This document shows, in pieces, positions 2,977-63,850 of a stretch of 64,000 bases of DNA. The stretch's first letter is position 1. Every line of letters starts with the position of its first letter. A model generated the notes under the pieces. The model was given only the letters and a program-made list of their open reading frames with translations. It was not told where the DNA came from and did no database searches. Position numbers and translations under genes: made by a program. This stretch comes from Octopus sinensis (Eukaryota). The stretch is from assembly GCF_006345805.1 (NCBI RefSeq), contig NC_043003.1, forward strand, positions 117,118,001-117,182,000, written 5' to 3'.

Positions 2977-4243
2977 CGAGGGTAAGTCAAAAATTATCTG
3001 CACTTTGGCCATAACATATCTTTATTATTGTTACACTGCTTTCTGCGCATGCGTGCTTATAGATGGTACTATTGTGTTCACGTGATCGAAGTTTGACCCT
3101 GATCGTGCCATTTTCTTTTTTCTTTCGGGCTTTACAGTATAAGCATAGCCATTCCACAAGCAACGTGCACCAAAGAACAAAGAGCAGTGATCCAGTTTCT
3201 CTGGTCAGAAGTTGTACCAGGTGCTGAAATTCATCGGAGGCTTTTAGCACAAAACGGGGACAGAGCGCTACCGCGTGGAAGTGTGTATGAGTAGATTGAG
3301 AAGTTTAAATGTGACCGGACAAGCTTGACGCAAAAAGACAGAACCGGGCGCCCGTCAGTCAACCTTCACCACTGACGAGAAGACTCAGCAAGACCGAGAC
3401 GGCAATGGTGAACCAGCGAGTTATCATGGTAGCTCGTTCTCTGCAGATTAGTCGTGGTTTTTGCCTATCAAATCATCCACGGCTTCCATAAAATCTGTGC
3501 AAGATGGATGCCAAGGGAGTGTACTGCAGAGCAAAAGCGCAAACGTCTTGAAGCCTGCCAACATTTACTTGATCGCTACAACAATGGGGTGAGGAATTTT
3601 TGAGCAGAATAGTCACAAGAGATGAAACGTGGGTCCGTGATTATGAGACAAAACACAGACTATGGAGTGGAAACATCCCAACTCGCCAGCGACGAAGTAT
3701 TTCAAGACTCAGTTTCCCTTTTTTTTTTGGACTCAAAAGGGCCTATACTGGAAGACTACCTTGAAAAGGGGTGTATGATCAACAGTGCAAGATACAGTGA
3801 TTTGCTGGCCAACAAACTGAAGCCAGCAATTCGCACCAAATGCCAAAGCCTATTGTCAAAGAAAGTGTTGTTGTTGCATTACAATGCACACCCATACACG
3901 GCCACCCAGACTGTTGAAACCATTAATCAATTGGGTTTTGAGGTGCTGGAATACCCTGCCTACAACCCAGATCTCGCCCCTTCCGACTATCATATCTTTC
4001 GACTGATGGAAGATGGTTTACAAGATCGTCGATTTCCTAGAGATGTGAAGGAAGTGGTACATAAATAGTTGCATGACCAACCAAAAACCTTCTTCTTGGA
4101 GGGGATATGCAAGCTTGTGGACCGCTTGACCAAGAGCATCAAAATAGGAGATTATAGAGAAAAATAGCGCATTTGTTTAACCCATGCTTTTGTGTAAATA
4201 CATTGAAAAAGCAAGAGTGCGTATAATTTATGACTCTCCTTCG
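2977..4243 (+). mobile_element. Full-length decayed mariner transposon
   Basis: Imperfect TIRs CGAGGGTAAGTCAAAAATTATCTGCAC / GTGCGTATAATTTATGACTCTCCTTCG, TA on both flanks, ~1.27 kb. Confidence 0.92.
3150..4168 (+). pseudogene. Mariner (DD34D) transposase pseudogene
   Basis: IVTRDETWV, LLHYNAHPY and YPAYNPDLAPSDYHIF motifs spread over several frames, with stops. Confidence 0.9.
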
Positions 4244-4638: not shown

Positions 4639-5003
4639 AGGAGTGGCTGTGTGGTAAGTAGCTTGCTAACCAACCACATGGTTCCGGGTTCAGTCCCACT
4701 GCCTGGCATCTTGGGCAAGTGTCTTCTGCTATAGCCCCGGGCCGACCAATGCCTTGTGAGTGGATTTGGTAGATGGAAACTGAAAGAAGCCTGTCGTATA
4801 TATGTATATATATATATGTGTATGTGTGTGTGTTTGTCCCCCTAGCATTACGTCCCCGTCACTTAGAGGTTCGGCAAAAGACACCGATAGAATAAGTACT
4901 GGGCTTACAAAGAATAAGTCCCAGGGTCGATTTGCTCGACTAAAGGCGGTGCTTCAGCATGACCGCAATCAAATGACTGAAACAAGTAAAAGAGTAAAGA
5001 GTA
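4639..5003 (+). mobile_element. tRNA-derived SINE, family A
   Basis: Head GGAGTGGCTGTGTGGTAAG...GGTTCAGTCCC (A/B-box-like), internal TA/TG tract, tail ATGACTGAAACAAGTAAAAGAGTA; many copies in the window. Confidence 0.9.
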
Positions 5004-28239: not shown

Positions 28240-28650
28240 CGAACTGGCAGAAACGTTAGCGCACCGGGCGAAAGTCTTAGCGGTATTTCGTCTGCCGTTA
28301 CGTGCTGAGTTCAAATCCCGCCGAGGTTGACTCTGCCTTTCATCCTTTCGGGGTCGATTGAATAAGTACCAGTTACGCACTGGGGTCGATGTAATCGATT
28401 TAGTCTCTTTGTCTGTCCTTGTTTGTCCCCTCTATGTTTCACCCCTTGTGGGTAATAAAGAAACGGGCATTTCGTCTGCCGTTACGTTCTGAGTTCAAAT
28501 TCCGCCGAGGTTGACTTTGCCTTTCATCCTTTTGGGGTCGATTGAATAAGTACCAGTTACGCACTGGGGTCGATGTAATCGATTTAGTCCCTTTGTCTGT
28601 CCTTGTTTGTTCCCTCTATGTTTAGGCCGTTGTGGGCAATAAAGAAATAA
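28240..28650 (+). mobile_element. SINE family B with a tandemly duplicated body
   Basis: ATTTCGTCTGCCGTTACG...AATAAAGAAA occurs twice, with a period of ~183 bp. Confidence 0.9.
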
Positions 28651-41689: not shown

Positions 41690-43495
41690 TCCTTAATACC
41701 GGTTCCCATATGCTATTCATATCTGCACTCTGCTGAGGAGGTTGTTGTGTCCTAGCATATGTGCTGCTTCTTTTAGTTTTCGTATTTTCCAGTGGTGTTC
41801 TCTGTCTATTATTTTGATTTCATCCCACAGGGGGAGATGCTCTCCATTTTTTTCCCATATATGATCAGCTAAACCCGATTTATCAATATCTCCCCGTGTC
41901 ACAGCTTTGCGATGTTCGTCTACTCTTATTTTGAGGGGACAGCATGTTTCGCCTTTATATAACATACCACAACTGCATGGGATGGAGTACACGCGGTTTT
42001 TGTCATATTCTCTTCGGTTTTACCCGAAGGAGATATTTGCGAAGTGTTGTATTATTCTTGAATAATGCCCTGATGTCATATGGGGCGCATATCTTTTTTA
42101 TCTTTTCGAAGAGGCCTTTCACATAGGGTAGGCAGACTGTGGACAGTTTATTGCTTTCATCTTCTCTTTTCTTCATAATTAGAATGGATAGTATATTTTA
42201 AGGGGGTAGTTGTTGCTTAATAGAATGTTACTGAGCTTGATGATTTCTGCGTGGTGTGTTTCACGATCGCTACTTATATTCTTTGCACGATGTTTTAGGC
42301 ACTGAGCAGTCCCGCTCTTTACACAGTATGGATGGTGGGGATTGAAGTTGCGGCATCGTCCAGTAAAGGTCGGTTTGCGGTATACGGATGTCTTGAATCC
42401 ATTCTTGGTGCATGTTTTTAATACCTCCAGGAATGCTAGCTGATTGTCTTTTTTTCCTTTTCCATTGTGAATTTTATGGATGGCTTTATTGAGTTCACAT
42501 GATCAACAGACTTGGACATCTTCCGGGTGGGGCCAGAATATGAAGGTGCCATCAACATATCGCAGCCATTGGCTTACTTTTAGTGGTGTTGATCCTAAAG
42601 CCAAATTCGCAAAGTATTCCACGTATATATTGGATATTGTCGGTGATAATGGCGAACCCATAACTAAACCCTCTTCTTGTCGATATATATCAGTGTCCAT
42701 GTTGTAATAAGTAGTTTCTACACACAAGGTCAACATTTCCATCAAGTTTCTTATTGGTTTACTAGTGCGTTCTTTTAGATGGGCGTCTGTCACTAGTTTC
42801 TCTTGAATCACCGATTGTGCTTCACCAGTTGGGATTTTGGTGAACACACTTATCACATCTAGATTCACCATCTGTTGGATCCAATTGAGGTATCCTTGAC
42901 CAATTCTGTGAAGTGAATGGAATTCTTCACGAACGAGGCTGACTTTCCTGCTAATGGACTGATTATATCCACAAGGAAGCGTCTCAGTGGATACCATGCT
43001 GAACCTCTTCAGGTCACTATTGGTCTTAAAGGAATACCATCCTTGTGAATCTTAGGGAGACCGTGTGTGGTAGTGTTGAGTCAGTTGTTTGTACTTCATT
43101 GGTGTAAAGTGATCCTTGTTCTTAATCAAGATCTGTGACAACTTCTTGTCTGTTTTCAAAGTAGGGTCTTTCTTTTCTTTACTGTAGCTACCATCACTTA
43201 TAAGACTTGCCAATTTTTCCGAGTAGACAGACTTGTTCATCCCCACTGTAGAATTTCCCTTGTCTGCCAGAAGTATTATTATGGAATTGTCACTCTGTAG
43301 TCTTTTGATAGCGAACTTTTCTTCCTTAGTGATGTTTGGTTTTTTCGAAGTTTCGCTTTTTCTAGTACCTGCCTCACTGTCCACCTTAGTTCATCTCCCT
43401 AAGCTTTTGGTATCTTTACAGCTATCTCGTCAATAGGGGCTAATATGTCCAAGTATGGAATGCGCTTGATGGTTGTCGCAAAGTTGAGACCTTTC
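41690..43495 (-). pseudogene. Penelope RT + GIY-YIG endonuclease pseudogene
   Basis: ILLADKGNSTV, VNLDVISVFTKIP, YRQEEGLVMGSPLSPTISNIYVE, WLRYVDGTF and VYSIPCSCGMLYKGETCCPLKIRVDEHRKA; frameshifted. Confidence 0.92.
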
Positions 43496-48295: not shown

Positions 48296-50091
48296 GGTCG
48301 GTGATTTCGCTACGTTTGTTACTATGGTGACATGGTGATAATATTGGATGTTATTCTGACAGACTTGATTTCAGTCAGTCATCATCACGTCGTGTCAGCG
48401 GTGCGACATTGAGTAGTGCAATGGTGTCATCGAAGATTGGAGTGAATTATGTTGAGACGGGGGGAATACTGACGCACGTTATCAGAATCACAGCTGTGGG
48501 TACGGGGAGTCACATTAACATTATGGCACTTGTGACTTCAATGGCTTATATTTGTCTTATTTTAATGTTTGTTACTTCATAATGATATATTTGTTTCTGC
48601 ACCATTTATGTACACAACATAATTAATTTTCAATGTTTCGTGATTGGCATTTTAAAAAATATATATATATTTGGAGAAATGATTCGCTGTTAAACTTTAG
48701 AACCGTTGATACAGCTGTCAAATCCTTATTTCACACATTAATTCACAAACCTATAAATTTTATTTATTCTAGTTTTTATTCGACTGCGAAGTAAATTGAA
48801 GAAACGGTCTGACTGTTATTGATGTCTGGGACTCGATGGAACATTAATAATGAGTTTAATTTTACCAAATGGAAGAAAAATTTGGACAACTGATATGATC
48901 GCGCTTAATTGAATGTGTTCCACTACATTTAGTTAAAAGGAAACTTGGTCTTCTAGAAACAGTATCCAAATTCCCTTTAACTCACACCCTACCGTCTTGA
49001 AAAATGGATACATTAGGTGCATAGATACCCGGTTTGATACAAGAATTCCAAAGAGGGGCAGATGGGTTTTGCCTTTCTGATCCGACTTATTAACATCAAA
49101 ACGACGGAACCTCTATATCTTCCCTTGGCTTACCACACAAAAGCAACCACGGTCTTATAAATGAACACAATGTATAATATAGCCCTGAGCTCTCTAGACA
49201 AAGAAGATGAGATGGTCAAATTTAGAACGCTCTAGATGATGGATCTTCTGGAGGGGCGCTGACGAGGACTAACCTACAAAAACAACATTCCTTTATTTTC
49301 TCGATTCTACAATAGGGAAAACAATGTCAAGTTCAACAATATTTAATCCCAGAACTTAAATAGTGGACATAAAATCAGAAGGAACTTTGACCAGGCATAT
49401 ACACCGATTTTTGCATTTCTTGGAAAGAATTGATGATTTCTAAGTTTGGCAGAATCTCAGACAAATGTAAGAAATGATCTATCAAACTAACAGCAATAAA
49501 AAAAATGCCACCAGTATGTCACTGGTATTTATTTTATTGACCTGTGAACGATGAAAGGCAACATACCATGGTACATTTATGCCACATTTTACGCTGCTCT
49601 AAAAAAGGCATTAATAATTTCAATAATTAAATCTATTTAAATTTCGTTATAATCATAAGCAACTGAATGCATAAAAATATGTGTTGGAACCATCTAAACT
49701 AGATATTTCTGAATTTCTATGTATTTTTGTGATCTCTCTGTTTTAACTGATGAGAAAATTCATTTGGTTACAATGGGAAAAAAAATGTTCATATTATGAG
49801 AAATCAACAAAGAGAATGTGATGAGGTGGTCAGTGCAGGAATAGCACTGAGGTCAGAGTTTCTCCCTCGGTGGTATCAGTAGCAAGGTGTAGTCACACGA
49901 CTTTCGGCTGTCAATCAATTGTGAGTCTCAGAGCTTTCACCAGGAAATCCAAGCACCATTGAGACAAACTCCTTCACTCAGACACAAGTGATATTTTCAC
50001 AACCATTTAGATACGTAGACACAAAAGCGTGCGTGCGTGCGTGCGTGCGAGTGTATGTTTATATGGGTACATGTGTAGGGATTGTTTGTTT

Positions 50092-50487
50092 AGGAGTGGC
50101 TGTGTGGTAAGTAGCTTGCTTACCAACAACATGGTTCCGGGTTCAGCCCCACTGTGTGGCACCTTGGACAAGTGTCTTTTACTATAGCCTCGGGGCGACC
50201 AAAACCTTGTGAGTGGATTTGTTAGACGGAAACTGAAAGAAGCCTGTCGTATATATGTATATATATATATATATGTTTGTGTTTGTTCCCCCAACATCGC
50301 CTGACAACCGATGCTGGTGTGTTTACGTCCCCGTAACTTAGCGGTTCGGCCAGAAAGACCGATAGAATAAGTACTAGGCTTACAAAGAATAAGTCCTGGG
50401 GTCGATTTGCTCGACTCAAGGCGGTGCTCCAACATGGCCGCAGTCAAATGACTGAAACAAGTAAAAGAGTATAAAGAGTAGAGAGTA
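50092..50487 (+). mobile_element. SINE family A, well conserved
   Basis: Complete head, body and GTAAAAGAGTA tail. Confidence 0.93.
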
Positions 50488-50887
50488 TGTATGTATGTAT
50501 ATATGTCGGTGTATAGTCATAGCATATGCGCGCGCACACATGCTTGGGAGCCGCTCCACTTGGTTCTCCAAAGGATTCTATTCTCTGCTTTCGCTATTTA
50601 TACAAACGCAAATTGTGTTAGAGTCTGTCTCACACAGAAATTCTTTGTTCCATGATATAAACGGCCTTCGAAACGGTTACGTCATTGTTTACAATCAGAC
50701 GCGAATCTCGAGTGGTTTCTCTCTATTTTTGTTCGGTAAACTTCCATTCGCCTTTGAAGTGAACGAATAATTACGTATGAAAGAAAAATATTTAAAAAAA
50801 ATTCACTTGTTAGTGTTACTTTTCCGACATATTACATTGCCAATCAGTGCGTTTGCATACAAGTACAACAGTGCTTTCATATATGTA

Positions 50888-51043
<156 letters not shown>

Positions 51044-51045
51044 TA

Positions 51046-51084
<39 letters not shown>

Positions 51085-51106
51085 TATATATATATATACA
51101 TATATA

Positions 51107-51137
<31 letters not shown>

Positions 51138-51218
51138 TTATAATATACATTTATATAATATATATATTATATATATAATATATATATGTAATATATATAT
51201 ATAGATTATATATATGTG

Positions 51219-51252
<34 letters not shown>

Positions 51253-52446
51253 ATATATATTATATATATATTGCATATATATATAATATATCAAAGTATC
51301 AAAGTATCAAAGTATATATATTAATATATATATATATATATATATTATATAATATATATATATATATACTATAATATGTATCATACATATATATGTATGT
51401 ATGTTTACGAGTTTACGTGTACCATATATATGTATTATATATGAGTGTGTGTGCATATATCAGCATATATTAGCGTCTGTGTGTTTGTGTGTGTGCGTGT
51501 GTGTTATGTATAGCGTTATAAATTTATATACACATGTGTATGTCAACATACGTATGAATATGTTTGTATATGCCTGTAAGGGCTGTGGGTGGTTGTGTGC
51601 GTGTATACGCATATGTAGATGCCTTCATATTTCTATATATTTATTTCATTGTTCTTCTATTTCTCTCAAGGCGTATATTTCAATTTTATTCGATCTGTTT
51701 TCGTAATGTTTCTGTCTATTTTCTCTAGTTTACTCTTTTACTCTTTTACTTGTTTCAGTCATTTGACTGCGACCATGCTGGAGCACCACCTTTAGTCGAG
51801 CAAATCGACCCCGGGACTTATTCATTGTAAGCCCAGTACTTATTCTATCGGTCTCTTTTGCCGAACCGCTGTGAAACTGGGACGTAAACACACCAGCATC
51901 GGTTGTCAAGCAATGCTAGGGGAACAAATACAGACACACAAACACACACACACATACACACACATATATATATACATATATACGACAGGCTTCTTTCAGT
52001 TTCCGTCTACCAAATCCACTCACAAGGCATTGGTCGGCCCGGGGCTATAGCAGAAGACACTTGCCCAAGATGCCACGCAGTTGGAGTGAACCCAGAACCA
52101 TGTGGTTGGTTAGCAAGCTACTTTATTTCAAAACATTTGCCATAAAGGCAGTACACAGATTAAGTTAGCTTTGCGGGCTGGACGAGGACATTAATGAAGT
52201 GAATGATAATGAAAGACAGATGATAAGGATGGGAGAAGACAAAAAGCGCCCGCCGACTTTCGCTTCTCTAAAACATTGTTCTTTTTAAAGATAAACACAA
52301 AACGAGGTATTAAACCTCTTACAATTTTTCCAATTTTTGGACTTAGCAGTCCATTATTAATAAAAATGCAAAACGAGGTATTAACCTCTTTCAATTTTCC
52401 AATTTTTGGACTTAGCAGTCCATTATTAATACTAACAGTTCAATAA

Positions 52447-53688
52447 TTACATATCGTCCTCGAAATAGCTTGTGCCCGCGCCCTCCACCATCAACCACGC
52501 CTCCCTCAGAACGTAATCAAGTTCCGAGTTCGCGTCACCCGGGACCAAGCTATAATCTTCATTGAGCTCCTTTAGCCCAAGCGTCACGTCGAACGCCACG
52601 GCCTCCACAGCTATCTGCGGAGGCCATTCGGGGTCCTGTGTGAAGGCTAAAGGAGCTACCTTGTGGTACTCTTCCATCATTTTTTTTTCAATTTCTCCTC
52701 CTCTATAGAAGAGGACCAATACGTTCAGTTCTTTCGTTGGCGGCACAGTTCCCGCCAACGTCTGCGGCTCATGGGTATCAGCCGCCCGACCTTTCTTTCT
52801 TTTTCTCCTCCTTCTTTTGGGGGAGACTGCTGACCCAGGGGACTCCGTCACCAGACACGGGGGATCGCAATCCCCCTCCGCCACCTGAGCGTTCTTTGGC
52901 GAGCAGCCATTGTTGCTCGCCTGTCTCTTTCTTTTCGTGGAGGCAACCTCCTCCACGACTTCCACCGTCTCCCCCTCAAATGAGGGGGCGGCGGGCGCCT
53001 TTTCCCCTTCATGCTCTGGGGCACCACCACGGCCCCCGGGACAATTCCTCTTGATATGTCCGGGCTTCAGGCACAGGTGACACTTGGGGGGGCGTCCCTC
53101 GAGTATCACCGAGTACCTGTGCCCAGCCATTCTCAGGAAGTCCGGGAATTTCATTTCTCCCACGGCCACCGGTGTCCACAGGGTCAAAGTTGCCTTTGAC
53201 CCCTCCCAGGCGACCGCGGGAGCCATTTTCACACTCAGTAGCCTGGGTCCGCTACCCCCCAGGCCTCGCCGGATGGTCTTCTCGATCCATTCCGCCTCCG
53301 TGCCCGGGGGCAGCCCACAAACCCAGGATCTTTTTACTTTTCTGCCACAATACGAGGGGAGGAACAAAATTTCCTCTCCCTCCAGTGGCTCGCTAGCAAA
53401 TCTGCTAGCTTCCTCGGGGGTACCAAACAGCAACCACACCGTTGCAAATTTAGTCCCCCGAGAAATAAACTTTATCGTTGGTAGGTGGTCCCCCAACTCT
53501 TTCTCTATGGTGCTCCTGTCGAAGAGGGCGATAGCTCCACGCGACCTAGAATAGGTTCGTAGGACCACCGTCCTCTTCTCAAGACTTTCAATCCACTGCT
53601 TGGGTGGGACAACCTCCCATTCCAAAGCAGTGGTTTCTTTTGTTGCCATGCTTTTGAAAAAAAGTTCAACTAAAAGTTCAAAGTCCAA
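52447..53688 (-). CDS. Intact LINE ORF1/gag-like nucleic-acid-binding protein with a CCHC zinc knuckle (first ATG at 53650)
   Basis: An uninterrupted 413-codon GC-rich ORF with EGRPPKCHLCLKPGHIKRNCP (CX2CX4HX4C) and a basic KRRRRKRKK tract; the layout is L1/Tx1-like. Confidence 0.85.
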   Translation of the reverse strand: MDFELLVELFFKSMATKETTALEWEVVPPKQWIESLEKRTVVLRTYSRSRGAIALFDRSTIEKELGDHLPTIKFISRGTKFATVWLLFGTPEEASRFASEPLEGEEILFLPSYCGRKVKRSWVCGLPPGTEAEWIEKTIRRGLGGSGPRLLSVKMAPAVAWEGSKATLTLWTPVAVGEMKFPDFLRMAGHRYSVILEGRPPKCHLCLKPGHIKRNCPGGRGGAPEHEGEKAPAAPSFEGETVEVVEEVASTKRKRQASNNGCSPKNAQVAEGDCDPPCLVTESPGSAVSPKRRRRKRKKGRAADTHEPQTLAGTVPPTKELNVLVLFYRGGEIEKKMMEEYHKVAPLAFTQDPEWPPQIAVEAVAFDVTLGLKELNEDYSLVPGDANSELDYVLREAWLMVEGAGTSYFEDDM

Positions 53689-53811
53689 TAAAAAAAAAAC
53701 ACAATGACAGAACAGAAAGACAGAACAGAGAAAAGGACGAAGGAAGACAGTTCAAATAATGGCAACACAGTTCTGCAACTGGTAATCCTCACGAAACAGG
53801 GTACTCCTAGT

Positions 53812-53935
53812 TGCAGCACACTTGGTTCTCCGTGGTAAATCCAAGCACAATTGGTTCTCCGTGGTAAATCCAAGCACAATTGGTTCTCCGTGGTAAATCC
53901 AAGCACAATTGGCTCTCCGTGGTAAATCCAAGCGA
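53812..53935. repeat. 29-bp tandem repeat (~4 copies) in the element's 5' UTR
   Basis: TTGGTTCTCCGTGGTAAATCCAAGCACAA repeated. Confidence 0.95.
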
Positions 53936-54549
53936 ACAAATTAATTTTTGAGGAGGGGCTATGCCTCTTCAAAATACACAATTCTCACTAAAAGGTGAGA
54001 CAATAAATACGCCAACAGGCAGAACAAATGCATCCGAAGCAAAGTGAAGCTTATTGCGCGCAGAAAAGTGTTAACACTAATTAACATTAATGCCAAAAAA
54101 GTATCAACGGCAAGCAATAAACCTCACTATGCTTCCAAAAATATCCAAAATGTCCTACCTGTTGCCGTAAAATGTTCAATAATTCACGTTAACACGTGAC
54201 ATTTGCCGGAGCAAAAAACAGCACGTCTGTCTGGTAAGAAGCTACTTACCACACAGCCACTCCTGCGCCTATTCATTTTTCAAATCATTTTAATCTTCCG
54301 ATTCCTTTGCCAAATATAGCCGTGTACTTCGATATGCACCAACAACTTCCTGTCAAAGGGGCGCAATCAAATCTACTTTCGATGAGATGTATTAAATTAG
54401 AGACGTATATTTAGAATGAAAAGCATTCTTATGCGATCGTGTTTATTTTACTTTCGCTTTTCTCTATTAACTTTCCTTTTCTCGTAAGAGAAGGCTCGGG
54501 AGAAAATATCCAAAGAGAGGCATGAAAGACAAGTTATAAGAGTGTGCTT

Positions 54550-63045: not shown

Positions 63046-63434
63046 CTCAATTCTCTCTTTTATATTGGAGTTTAGTATTTCCAAATATTTATCAATGATA
63101 AGGCGTGTGGAAGTAGAAGTCGTGTTCTTTTGTTTAAATGAACGAAAGGATGAAGCAATGGGCATGTTTTTTGTGTACTGCTCCGTTCGCACGCGAGTTT
63201 GTGTGTGTGTATGTGTGTGTGTGTGCGCGCGTGTGTGTATGTATGTGTTTATATACTGATCATAAAGATAAGTGGTTCTCAGGTAGATGCGCTGCGCTAA
63301 CTGTTAATATAAATTGCTAATATGAAACATTTGTTTTTTTCTTTCCTTATATATTTAGTCATTCTTCTTCCCATCCACCCCACAATATTCGGCGGTTCAA
63401 ACACTACAGGTTACGATTGCTATGTATAATACCA

Positions 63435-63850
63435 ATTTCTTTATTACCCACAAGGGGTTAAACACAGAGAGGACAAACAAAGACAGACAACCGGATTAAG
63501 TCGATTACATCGACCCCAGTGCGTAACTGGTACTTATTTAATCGACCCCGAAAGGATGAAAGGCAAAGTCGACCTCGGCGGAATTTGAACTCAGAACGTA
63601 GCGGCAGACGAAATACCTATTTCTTTACTACCCACAAGGGGTTAAACACAGAGGGGACAAACAAGGACAGACAACCGGATTACGTCGATTATATCGACCC
63701 CAGTGTGTAACTGGTACTTAATTAATCGACCCCGAAAGGATGAAAGGCAAAGTCGACCTCGGCGGAATTTGAACTCAGAACGTAGCGGCAGACGAAATAC
63801 AGCTAAGCATTTCGTCCGACGTGCTAACGATTCCGCCAGCTCGCCGCCTT
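63435..63850 (-). mobile_element. SINE family B with a tandemly duplicated body
   Basis: Two ~183 bp body copies followed by the head GCTCGCCGCC. Confidence 0.92.

Follow-up and report, generated by a model that had tools for sequence, protein, structure and literature searches.

An ORF1-only retroelement family at one base of a SINE head in Octopus sinensis, with a Tx1-like LINE as its candidate partner

Derivatives of long interspersed elements (LINEs) that carry only open reading frame 1 (ORF1) have been described for three clades, L1, Jockey and CR1 (PMC5786205, PMC5753468); the cases named in PMC5786205, namely HeT-A, HAL1 and Ag-Sponge, include none derived from Tx1. Here we describe an ORF1-only element without long terminal repeats (non-LTR) that lies on the minus strand of a 64,000-nt stretch of Octopus sinensis DNA (contig NC_043003.1, positions 117,118,001 to 117,182,000, assembly GCF_006345805.1; hereafter the window) and interrupts a short interspersed element (SINE). 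Its family occupies one fixed base in the head of this SINE and, as judged from sequence comparison, very probably moves by target-primed reverse transcription with the enzymes of a partner LINE supplied in trans.

Like the mammalian HAL1 elements, the octopus family is multicopy and non-autonomous, carries ORF1 only and would need an autonomous LINE; HAL1 has had several origins (PMC5753468, PMC5786205), and two ORF1-only lineages are found here. The first-pass annotation of the locus, made from the sequence alone, had classed the element as HAL1-like, an assignment that we do not retain. The ORF1p of HAL1 comes from the L1 clade and comprises a coiled coil, an RNA recognition motif (RRM) and a C-terminal domain, and HAL1 copies carry poly(A) tails and are inserted in a dispersed manner. 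In contrast, the octopus ORF1 has the predicted order RRM-RRM-CCHC without a match to an L1-type ORF1 in Pfam, its nearest ORF1 relatives are those of local LINEs with an APE endonuclease and a reverse transcriptase (RT), and the element has no poly(A) tail, a base-exact target instead of dispersed insertions, and arrays. HeT-A, which accompanies TART and TAHRE at Drosophila telomeres, is likewise ORF1-only and lies in same-direction, head-to-tail arrays mixed with an RT-bearing partner (PMC5537684). It is, however, a Jockey-clade element of chromosome ends with poly(A) (PMC5537684), whereas the octopus family occupies interstitial SINE sites, has target duplications between its units and is accompanied by a partner with an L1-like ORF2. 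Ag-Sponge is also a bipartite non-autonomous LINE in which ORF1 is present, but it derives from CR1 (PMC5786205).

The crocodilian pair Tx1-Mar and SINEU-3, and Tx1L in Tx1D, provide precedents for a Tx1 LINE that targets a transposon, for a non-autonomous passenger that shares this target and for tandem insertions that sandwich a duplication (PMC4494074). There the target of Tx1-Mar is a DNA transposon (Mariner), the preference is partial or directed at two regions, and the SINEU-3 passenger is a non-coding SINE derived from a small nuclear RNA (snRNA) (PMC4494074); here, in contrast, the target is a SINE head, and the passenger encodes a selected ORF1 and outnumbers its candidate helper. Thirteen recently active L1-Tx1 families are described in Octopus vulgaris (PMC13282606). 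No protein-coding, ORF1-only element that accompanies a likely Tx1 LINE at a base-exact SINE head was found in literature searches, which did not extend to Repbase, Dfam or the repeat library of PMC13282606, the last of which may hold these families. The element works like HAL1 and HeT-A and belongs to neither; it is site-specific and likely derived from Tx1.

One insertion site in a SINE head

A search of the animal's own genome gave 3,062 candidates, and among the 40 that were scored there are 20 full-length, single-piece matches (93-100%, the window copy included) with identical ends, which excludes chance and bears out the earlier suggestion of a multicopy, non-autonomous ORF1-only family. 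At each of 30 fetched loci, the first 31 nt of the same SINE stand upstream of the element, and the 3' end is followed by AAGTAGCTT (with one mismatch at two loci) and then by the body of that SINE. All 30 copies share the 3' end and none continues into an ORF2, contrary to the possibility raised at the outset that only the window copy had lost its second frame. The bounds of the element were already correctly placed by the 9-bp duplication within a SINE, AAGCTACTT (plus strand) at both 52115-52123 and 54239-54247. The SINE itself is no accidental landing place; it is the fixed target of the whole lineage.

This specificity extends to copies drawn without reference to the site. A 25-letter pattern from the element end alone matches the genome 156 times; 146 of these exact 3' ends continue into AAGTAGCT with no A added, and of the first 100 ends, 94 lie at the exact site and the other six at one-base variants of the same site. 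3' ends picked by position lay at the site in 30 of 30 cases, nine of them overlapping with the fetched best copies. A pattern across the element/SINE junction gave 1,071 matches against one control match, and samples drawn with it favour on-target copies by construction, whereas the element-only end patterns do not. The junction sites are interstitial rather than telomeric, lie inside the SINE on many contigs, and share the genome with at least 66,340 exact empty SINE sites. The SINE head aligns to genomic tRNAs, with tRNA-Lys(TTT) as the best match (z about 5) among the top 30 tRNA loci (Lys, Thr, Ala, Phe, Arg, Cys), and the insertion point falls just 3' of its A-box-like motif. Insertion parts this motif from the B-box-like one and may thereby curb the SINE.

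The insertions into the SINE are independent of one another. Across 28 close copies, the pairwise difference is 1.9% for the element and 9.7% for the host SINE body, a Mantel test finds no significant correlation between the two sets of distances (r 0.21, p 0.11), and the host variants at target nt 10-15 (GCTAAC, GCTTAC, GTTTAC, GTCTAC) do not track the element. The 1.9% figure supports the view that the family is young; current activity, which was also suggested, is not shown by these copies, the closest pair of the 28 differing by 0.64%. Duplications were compared among 105 catalogued units. The 37 units that share the 5' end type of the window copy were treated separately, and 49 of the remainder were counted. 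Target nt 10-15 agree between the 5' and 3' sides in 43 of these 49 (24.7 expected), which indicates that in most subfamilies about 15 bp of recipient sequence are duplicated on insertion. The window subfamily has its own CTTACCA start in 32 of its 37 ends, whatever SINE variant lies downstream, and leaves a 9-bp duplication, the short form typical of this subfamily in comparison with the approximately 15 bp of its relatives; together, this 5' end and the duplication rebuild a near-copy of the landing site. An extra T at target nt 10 occurs in 11 of the 105 junctions. Copies that lack their 5' part and measure 51-916 bp stand directly behind the SINE head (loci L124, L127, L129, L131, L135, L189, L194, L196, L200, L208 and L229), an arrangement expected from target-primed reverse transcription. 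The copies at L200, L208 and L226 come from different subfamilies, and their truncation points coincide about 145-160 nt from the 3' end, in a stretch of the 3' untranslated region (UTR) that shows microhomology to the target; these three were considered as a separate short family, which we rejected because they match ORF1-only 3' UTRs and are read as truncations.

The site is shared with autonomous elements, and 60 consecutive junctions comprise 46 of ORF1-only type, 10 of autonomous type and four assigned to neither. Many units stand in head-to-tail arrays with one target copy between neighbours, such as the three units of L093, the three or more of L092 and the 14 or more ORF1 units that span about 29 kb on contig C7, and arrays at L151, L153, L156 and L157 mix candidate-helper and ORF1-only units. 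In the C7 array (L095, L233), a variant target copy, AAGTAGCTC, recurs at seven junctions, which is consistent with a duplication inherited along the array. Upstream of the SINE head of this array, L234 holds a divergent ORF2 (52-62%) and an ORF1 (45% to the 1.5-kb type described below), perhaps another stack.

ORF1 and a candidate partner LINE

Structural modelling of ORF1 predicts two RRM folds, a zinc knuckle, a disordered basic linker and a small C-terminal alpha/beta domain. The RRM-fold region is modelled by AlphaFold2 with a predicted local distance difference test score (pLDDT) of about 80-95, matches tandem RRMs in Foldseek (E 1.4e-4) and compares with the La RRM at Z 9.1 and a root mean square deviation of 2.8 over 83 aligned positions. 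Pfam returns zf-CCHC alone (E 0.0095, below the curated cut-off), and the knuckle residues C190, C193, H198 and C203 are invariant across 20 ORF1s. The C-terminal domain is kept in 16 diverse ORF1-only copies and was not detected in the ORF1 or ORF2 of the partner; it has no Pfam match below E 0.28 and, with one of five models confident, no fold match better than Z 4.8 or Foldseek E 1, a lack of matches that does not establish a new fold. A database search with ORF1 returned one relative, an Octopus protein, and a profile search returned 2,184.

The ORF1s of ORF1-only elements start 40-50 aa nearer the knuckle than those of autonomous elements. In a tree of 34 ORF1 N-terminal parts, the 18 rows of window type form a single, long-branched clade (100/100) that comprises four or more subfamilies, and the three rows of a second ORF1-only type, 1.5 kb in length, fall among the autonomous ORF1s. 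Two origins of the ORF1-only types appear likely from this tree, which carries a tool warning that long branches meet. The second type, with a long N-terminal extension, occurs at the same site (L093:6508-7731, L153:7707-8930, L095:3013-3921). Subfamilies have also exchanged modules, with the 5' UTR, the N-terminal part of ORF1, and the C-terminal part together with the 3' UTR as the units of exchange, and the window copy is of a mosaic type. The ORF1-only lineage diverged under purifying selection: the ratio of nonsynonymous to synonymous divergence (dN/dS), which the first-pass annotation had named as a check, is 0.11-0.23 in all 10 pairs of five subfamily representatives. In 10 of 10 pairs of young intact copies it is 0.9-1.6, in accordance with neutral decay after insertion, and the ORF is intact in five of 30 close copies.

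The partner LINE was found by following ORF2 tails seen at junction loci. It is 5.4 kb long, and its intact copy at L151 encodes an ORF1 of 467 aa and an ORF2 of 1130 aa, the latter with the Pfam domains Exo_endo_phos, RVT_1 and zf-RVT and with L1 ORF2p as its closest solved structure (E 3e-65). The partner has 81 exact 3' ends, and all 30 that were inspected lie at the same SINE site, 29 in register and one with an extra T. Its RT copies are up to 97-99% alike, which suggests activity over the same period. A LINE with the same 3' end had been anticipated, and the partner is such a LINE; the sequence that it has in common with the ORF1-only elements is limited to the last ~37 nt. Over 70 distinct ends, the TGCC-n5-GGCA hairpin has 93.9% of cells paired with 22 double changes, against 0 of 500 shuffles.

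Based on its parts and its relatives, the partner is likely a member of the Tx1 clade. The N-terminal APE endonuclease, RT and C-terminal zinc finger of ORF2 and the CCHC of ORF1 are Tx1-like, and the partner prefers a multicopy target, the SINE site; a named relative of its ORF2 comes from Argonauta, and no named Tx1 reference is among the 120 relatives listed. Of the sister LINEs, whose RT is 75-78% identical, 12 were examined and none lies at the SINE site. One (L169, 7590-7783 and 214-396) stands directly before a U2 snRNA gene, the start of which is duplicated over a short length, and two (L161, L166) have (TC)n on both flanks. Since Keno targets U2 and Kibi targets (TC)n (PMC4494074), these sisters occupy Keno and Kibi target types, target type alone being compared, which makes Tx1 membership likely; the partner lineage differs from both in targeting a SINE head. 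Of the L1/Tx1 derivation first put forward, the Tx1 part can accordingly be kept as likely, and the part concerning an L1-type ORF1 cannot. Four further sisters (L159, L163, L167, L170) form tandem arrays of full-length units of their own.

Anatomy of the window copy

The layout read from the sequence at the outset, with a repeat-bearing 5' UTR, one intact CCHC ORF and a 3' UTR, is confirmed (Table 1). So is the lack of an RT or endonuclease, as a tblastn search with the partner ORF2 found no ORF2 homology anywhere in the window. ORF1 is the only intact long coding ORF seen: the 23 stop-to-stop frames of at least 150 aa in the window are mostly simple-repeat frames, and two of four further frames scanned are short transposase and RT fragments. 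These comprise a mariner-type transposase fragment at 3613-4068 (Transposase_1, E 0.0016) and an RT fragment at 42503-43051 (RVT_1, E 7e-7). At gathering level, neither the element nor the L151 LINE has an Rfam match to a ribozyme, tRNA or snRNA, 49900-54400 has no snRNA match, and ARAGORN gave no tRNA in the window.

Table 1. Features of the ORF1-only element and its host SINE, in window coordinates
Feature	Position	Strand	Basis or remark
Full-length ORF1-only non-LTR element, 2,115 bp	52124..54238	-	multicopy full-length matches, constant 3' end
Target duplication AAGTAGCTT, 5' copy	54239..54247	-	
Target duplication AAGTAGCTT, 3' copy	52115..52123	-	
Element-borne target-like 5' end CTTACCA	54232..54238	-	32/37 ends of this 5' type
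5' UTR, 589 nt	53650..54238	-	exchangeable between subfamilies
Tandem repeat in 5' UTR, 29-bp x 4.1	53815..53933	-	
ORF1, 400 aa, intact	52447..53649	-	ATG 53649, stop 52447
Two predicted RRM-fold domains, aa 16-102 and 103-187	53089..53604	-	AlphaFold2, Foldseek, structural comparison
CCHC zinc knuckle, CX2CX4HX4C, aa 190-203	53041..53082	-	motif, Pfam zf-CCHC
C-terminal ~85-aa alpha/beta domain (predicted)	52489..52740	-	conserved in ORF1-only subfamilies
3' UTR, 323 nt, without poly(A) tail	52124..52446	-	
Repeat in 3' UTR, 69-bp x 1.9	52298-52431	-	
3' hairpin TGCC-n5-GGCA	52138..52150	-	common to autonomous LINE
AATAAA spanning element/target junction	52122..52127	-	only minus-strand AATAAA in 52000-54300
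Host SINE 5' head, 31 nt	54239..54269	-	severed from body by insertion
A-box-like TGGCTGTGTGG in host SINE head	54259-54249	-	
Host SINE body	51730..52123 (51730 approximate)	-	B-box-like GGTTC motif near start

The body of the host SINE ends in CAGTC-AAAT-GACTG followed by AAAGAGT repeats, unlike the tail of the element, and a host SINE sharing the element tail was rejected on this ground. Empty heads of the same SINE stand elsewhere in the window at 4640, 8722, 35497 and 50093. A second SINE family forms tandem dimers with a 184-bp period at 28285-28647 and 63428-63800, which look like a SINE inserting into its own copies; its tail has ~30 nt in common with the 3' UTR of the candidate helper LINE and ends in AATAAAGAAA(TA), like the sister LINEs.

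Proposed mobilisation and alternative readings

In the mechanism that we propose, the partner endonuclease would nick the bottom strand at 5'-AAGCTACTT/ACC, and the partner RT would recognise the 3' hairpin of the ORF1-only RNA. This RNA would read through into the SINE, as the sole poly(A) signal arises where element (AATA) and target (AA) meet, and its target-derived tail would pair with the nicked DNA, so that 3' junctions come out tail-less and base-exact. In 95 long units, no AATAAA is contained entirely in the last 60 nt; together with the tail-less junctions, this makes it likely that the 3' end of the RNA lies within the SINE and anneals to the nicked strand, as reported for R1Bm (PMC7265360). 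Top-strand cleavage would follow at a point about 15 nt further downstream, and a target-like hexamer at the start of the RNA, in those subfamilies that have one, would replace that of the recipient. Every insertion would leave a usable site on which later copies could stack. ORF1 may be retained because its protein packages its own RNA and competes for the ORF2p of the partner, and co-assembly of the HeT-A type has been proposed as a reason for ORF1 retention (PMC5786205).

Several observations weigh against this account. Mobilisation in trans is inferred from the shared site, the shared tail and the overlapping age, and the window-type ORF1 is only ~28% identical to that of the partner. No direct autonomous ancestor, a LINE that carries both a window-type ORF1 and an ORF2, was found among sets of 20, 30 and 60 loci, in a search of the best 150 matches, which close relatives filled, and such a LINE may exist. 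A different helper at the site, from among the older subfamilies L119, L133 and L211, could also have been used. The hairpin has only four pairs, and sequence relatedness inflates its shuffle test; dS between the subfamilies is 0.58-2.09, near saturation. The duplicates are discordant in six of the 49 units counted, and 19 units with non-standard variants had been dropped before that count. Finally, the order of units in 13 arrays, compared with nearest-neighbour distance, did not track age.

A bolder form of the proposal, which we regard as doubtful, would make the element a self-enforcing, RNA-steered hyperparasite. Polyadenylated only at the SINE site, it would yield productive RNAs that all bear target sequence at the 3' end, and in some subfamilies at the 5' end too, and pairing of these ends with the nicked DNA would set the insertion base. 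It would out-compete the helper for ORF2p by means of a re-engineered ORF1 (its N-terminal part 40-50 aa shorter than that of the helper, its C-terminal domain new), and both would build HeT-A/TART-like arrays at thousands of interstitial sites, knocking out SINE promoters.

Two narrower alternatives accept site-specific insertion. It is unlikely, in our judgement, that the arrays grow mainly by DNA duplication or by retrotransposition of multi-unit read-through RNA. The same two-subfamily order recurs at L091, L092, L093, L094 and L098, the failure of array order to track age fits growth in blocks, and L100 provides a DNA-level duplication, with two element copies 3.9 kb apart and part of the SINE duplicated with them. 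However, array units are of different subfamilies with one target copy between each pair, and the 5' ends of the downstream units differ between loci of the same order. The recurring subfamily orders may nonetheless leave room for block transfer or DNA duplication. We consider it similarly improbable that the choice of site depends chiefly on target tags at the RNA ends, which would pair with the DNA, and that the endonuclease is only loosely specific. The absence of a poly(A) tail and of a complete AATAAA in the last 60 nt would suit such pairing, as would the target-like 5' end carried by one subfamily and the finding that R1Bm requires downstream target sequence for accurate priming (PMC7265360). 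Against it, sisters with 75-78% identical RT occupy (TC)n and the U2 gene, as expected if the endonucleases had diverged, and the endonuclease is held to be the main determinant of the Tx1 target (PMC4494074).

Far less probable is a composite SINE that carries an ORF1 cassette and was amplified as a unit, so that the fixed position would reflect a single ancestral insertion. Every copy examined does have a SINE head upstream and a SINE body downstream, and the 5' junction of the window subfamily is nearly uniform, but divergence among the SINE bodies is five times that of the element, with several variants that do not track it, truncated copies keep the SINE head, and unrelated ORF1 types and a 5.4-kb LINE share the same base. 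The intact window copy could also be explained by a single internal deletion in a LINE or by domestication of an ORF1 gene, both of which can be practically dismissed in view of hundreds of interspersed copies with identical ends and of neutral decay after insertion (dN/dS about 1 in all 10 young pairs).

In the mechanism that we favour, two strategies known separately, the ORF1-only parasitism of HAL1 and HeT-A and the target specificity of Tx1, would be joined in one system. The result would be a three-tier nest in which a SINE serves as safe harbour, a LINE targets the SINE, and a protein-coding element parasitises the LINE. With its selected subfamilies, intact candidate helper and defined 15-bp target, the system makes the retention of ORF1 in ORF1-only elements testable. 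A base-exact system with a cis signal of ~40 nt and harmless sites by the tens of thousands may also be of interest for targeted gene insertion.

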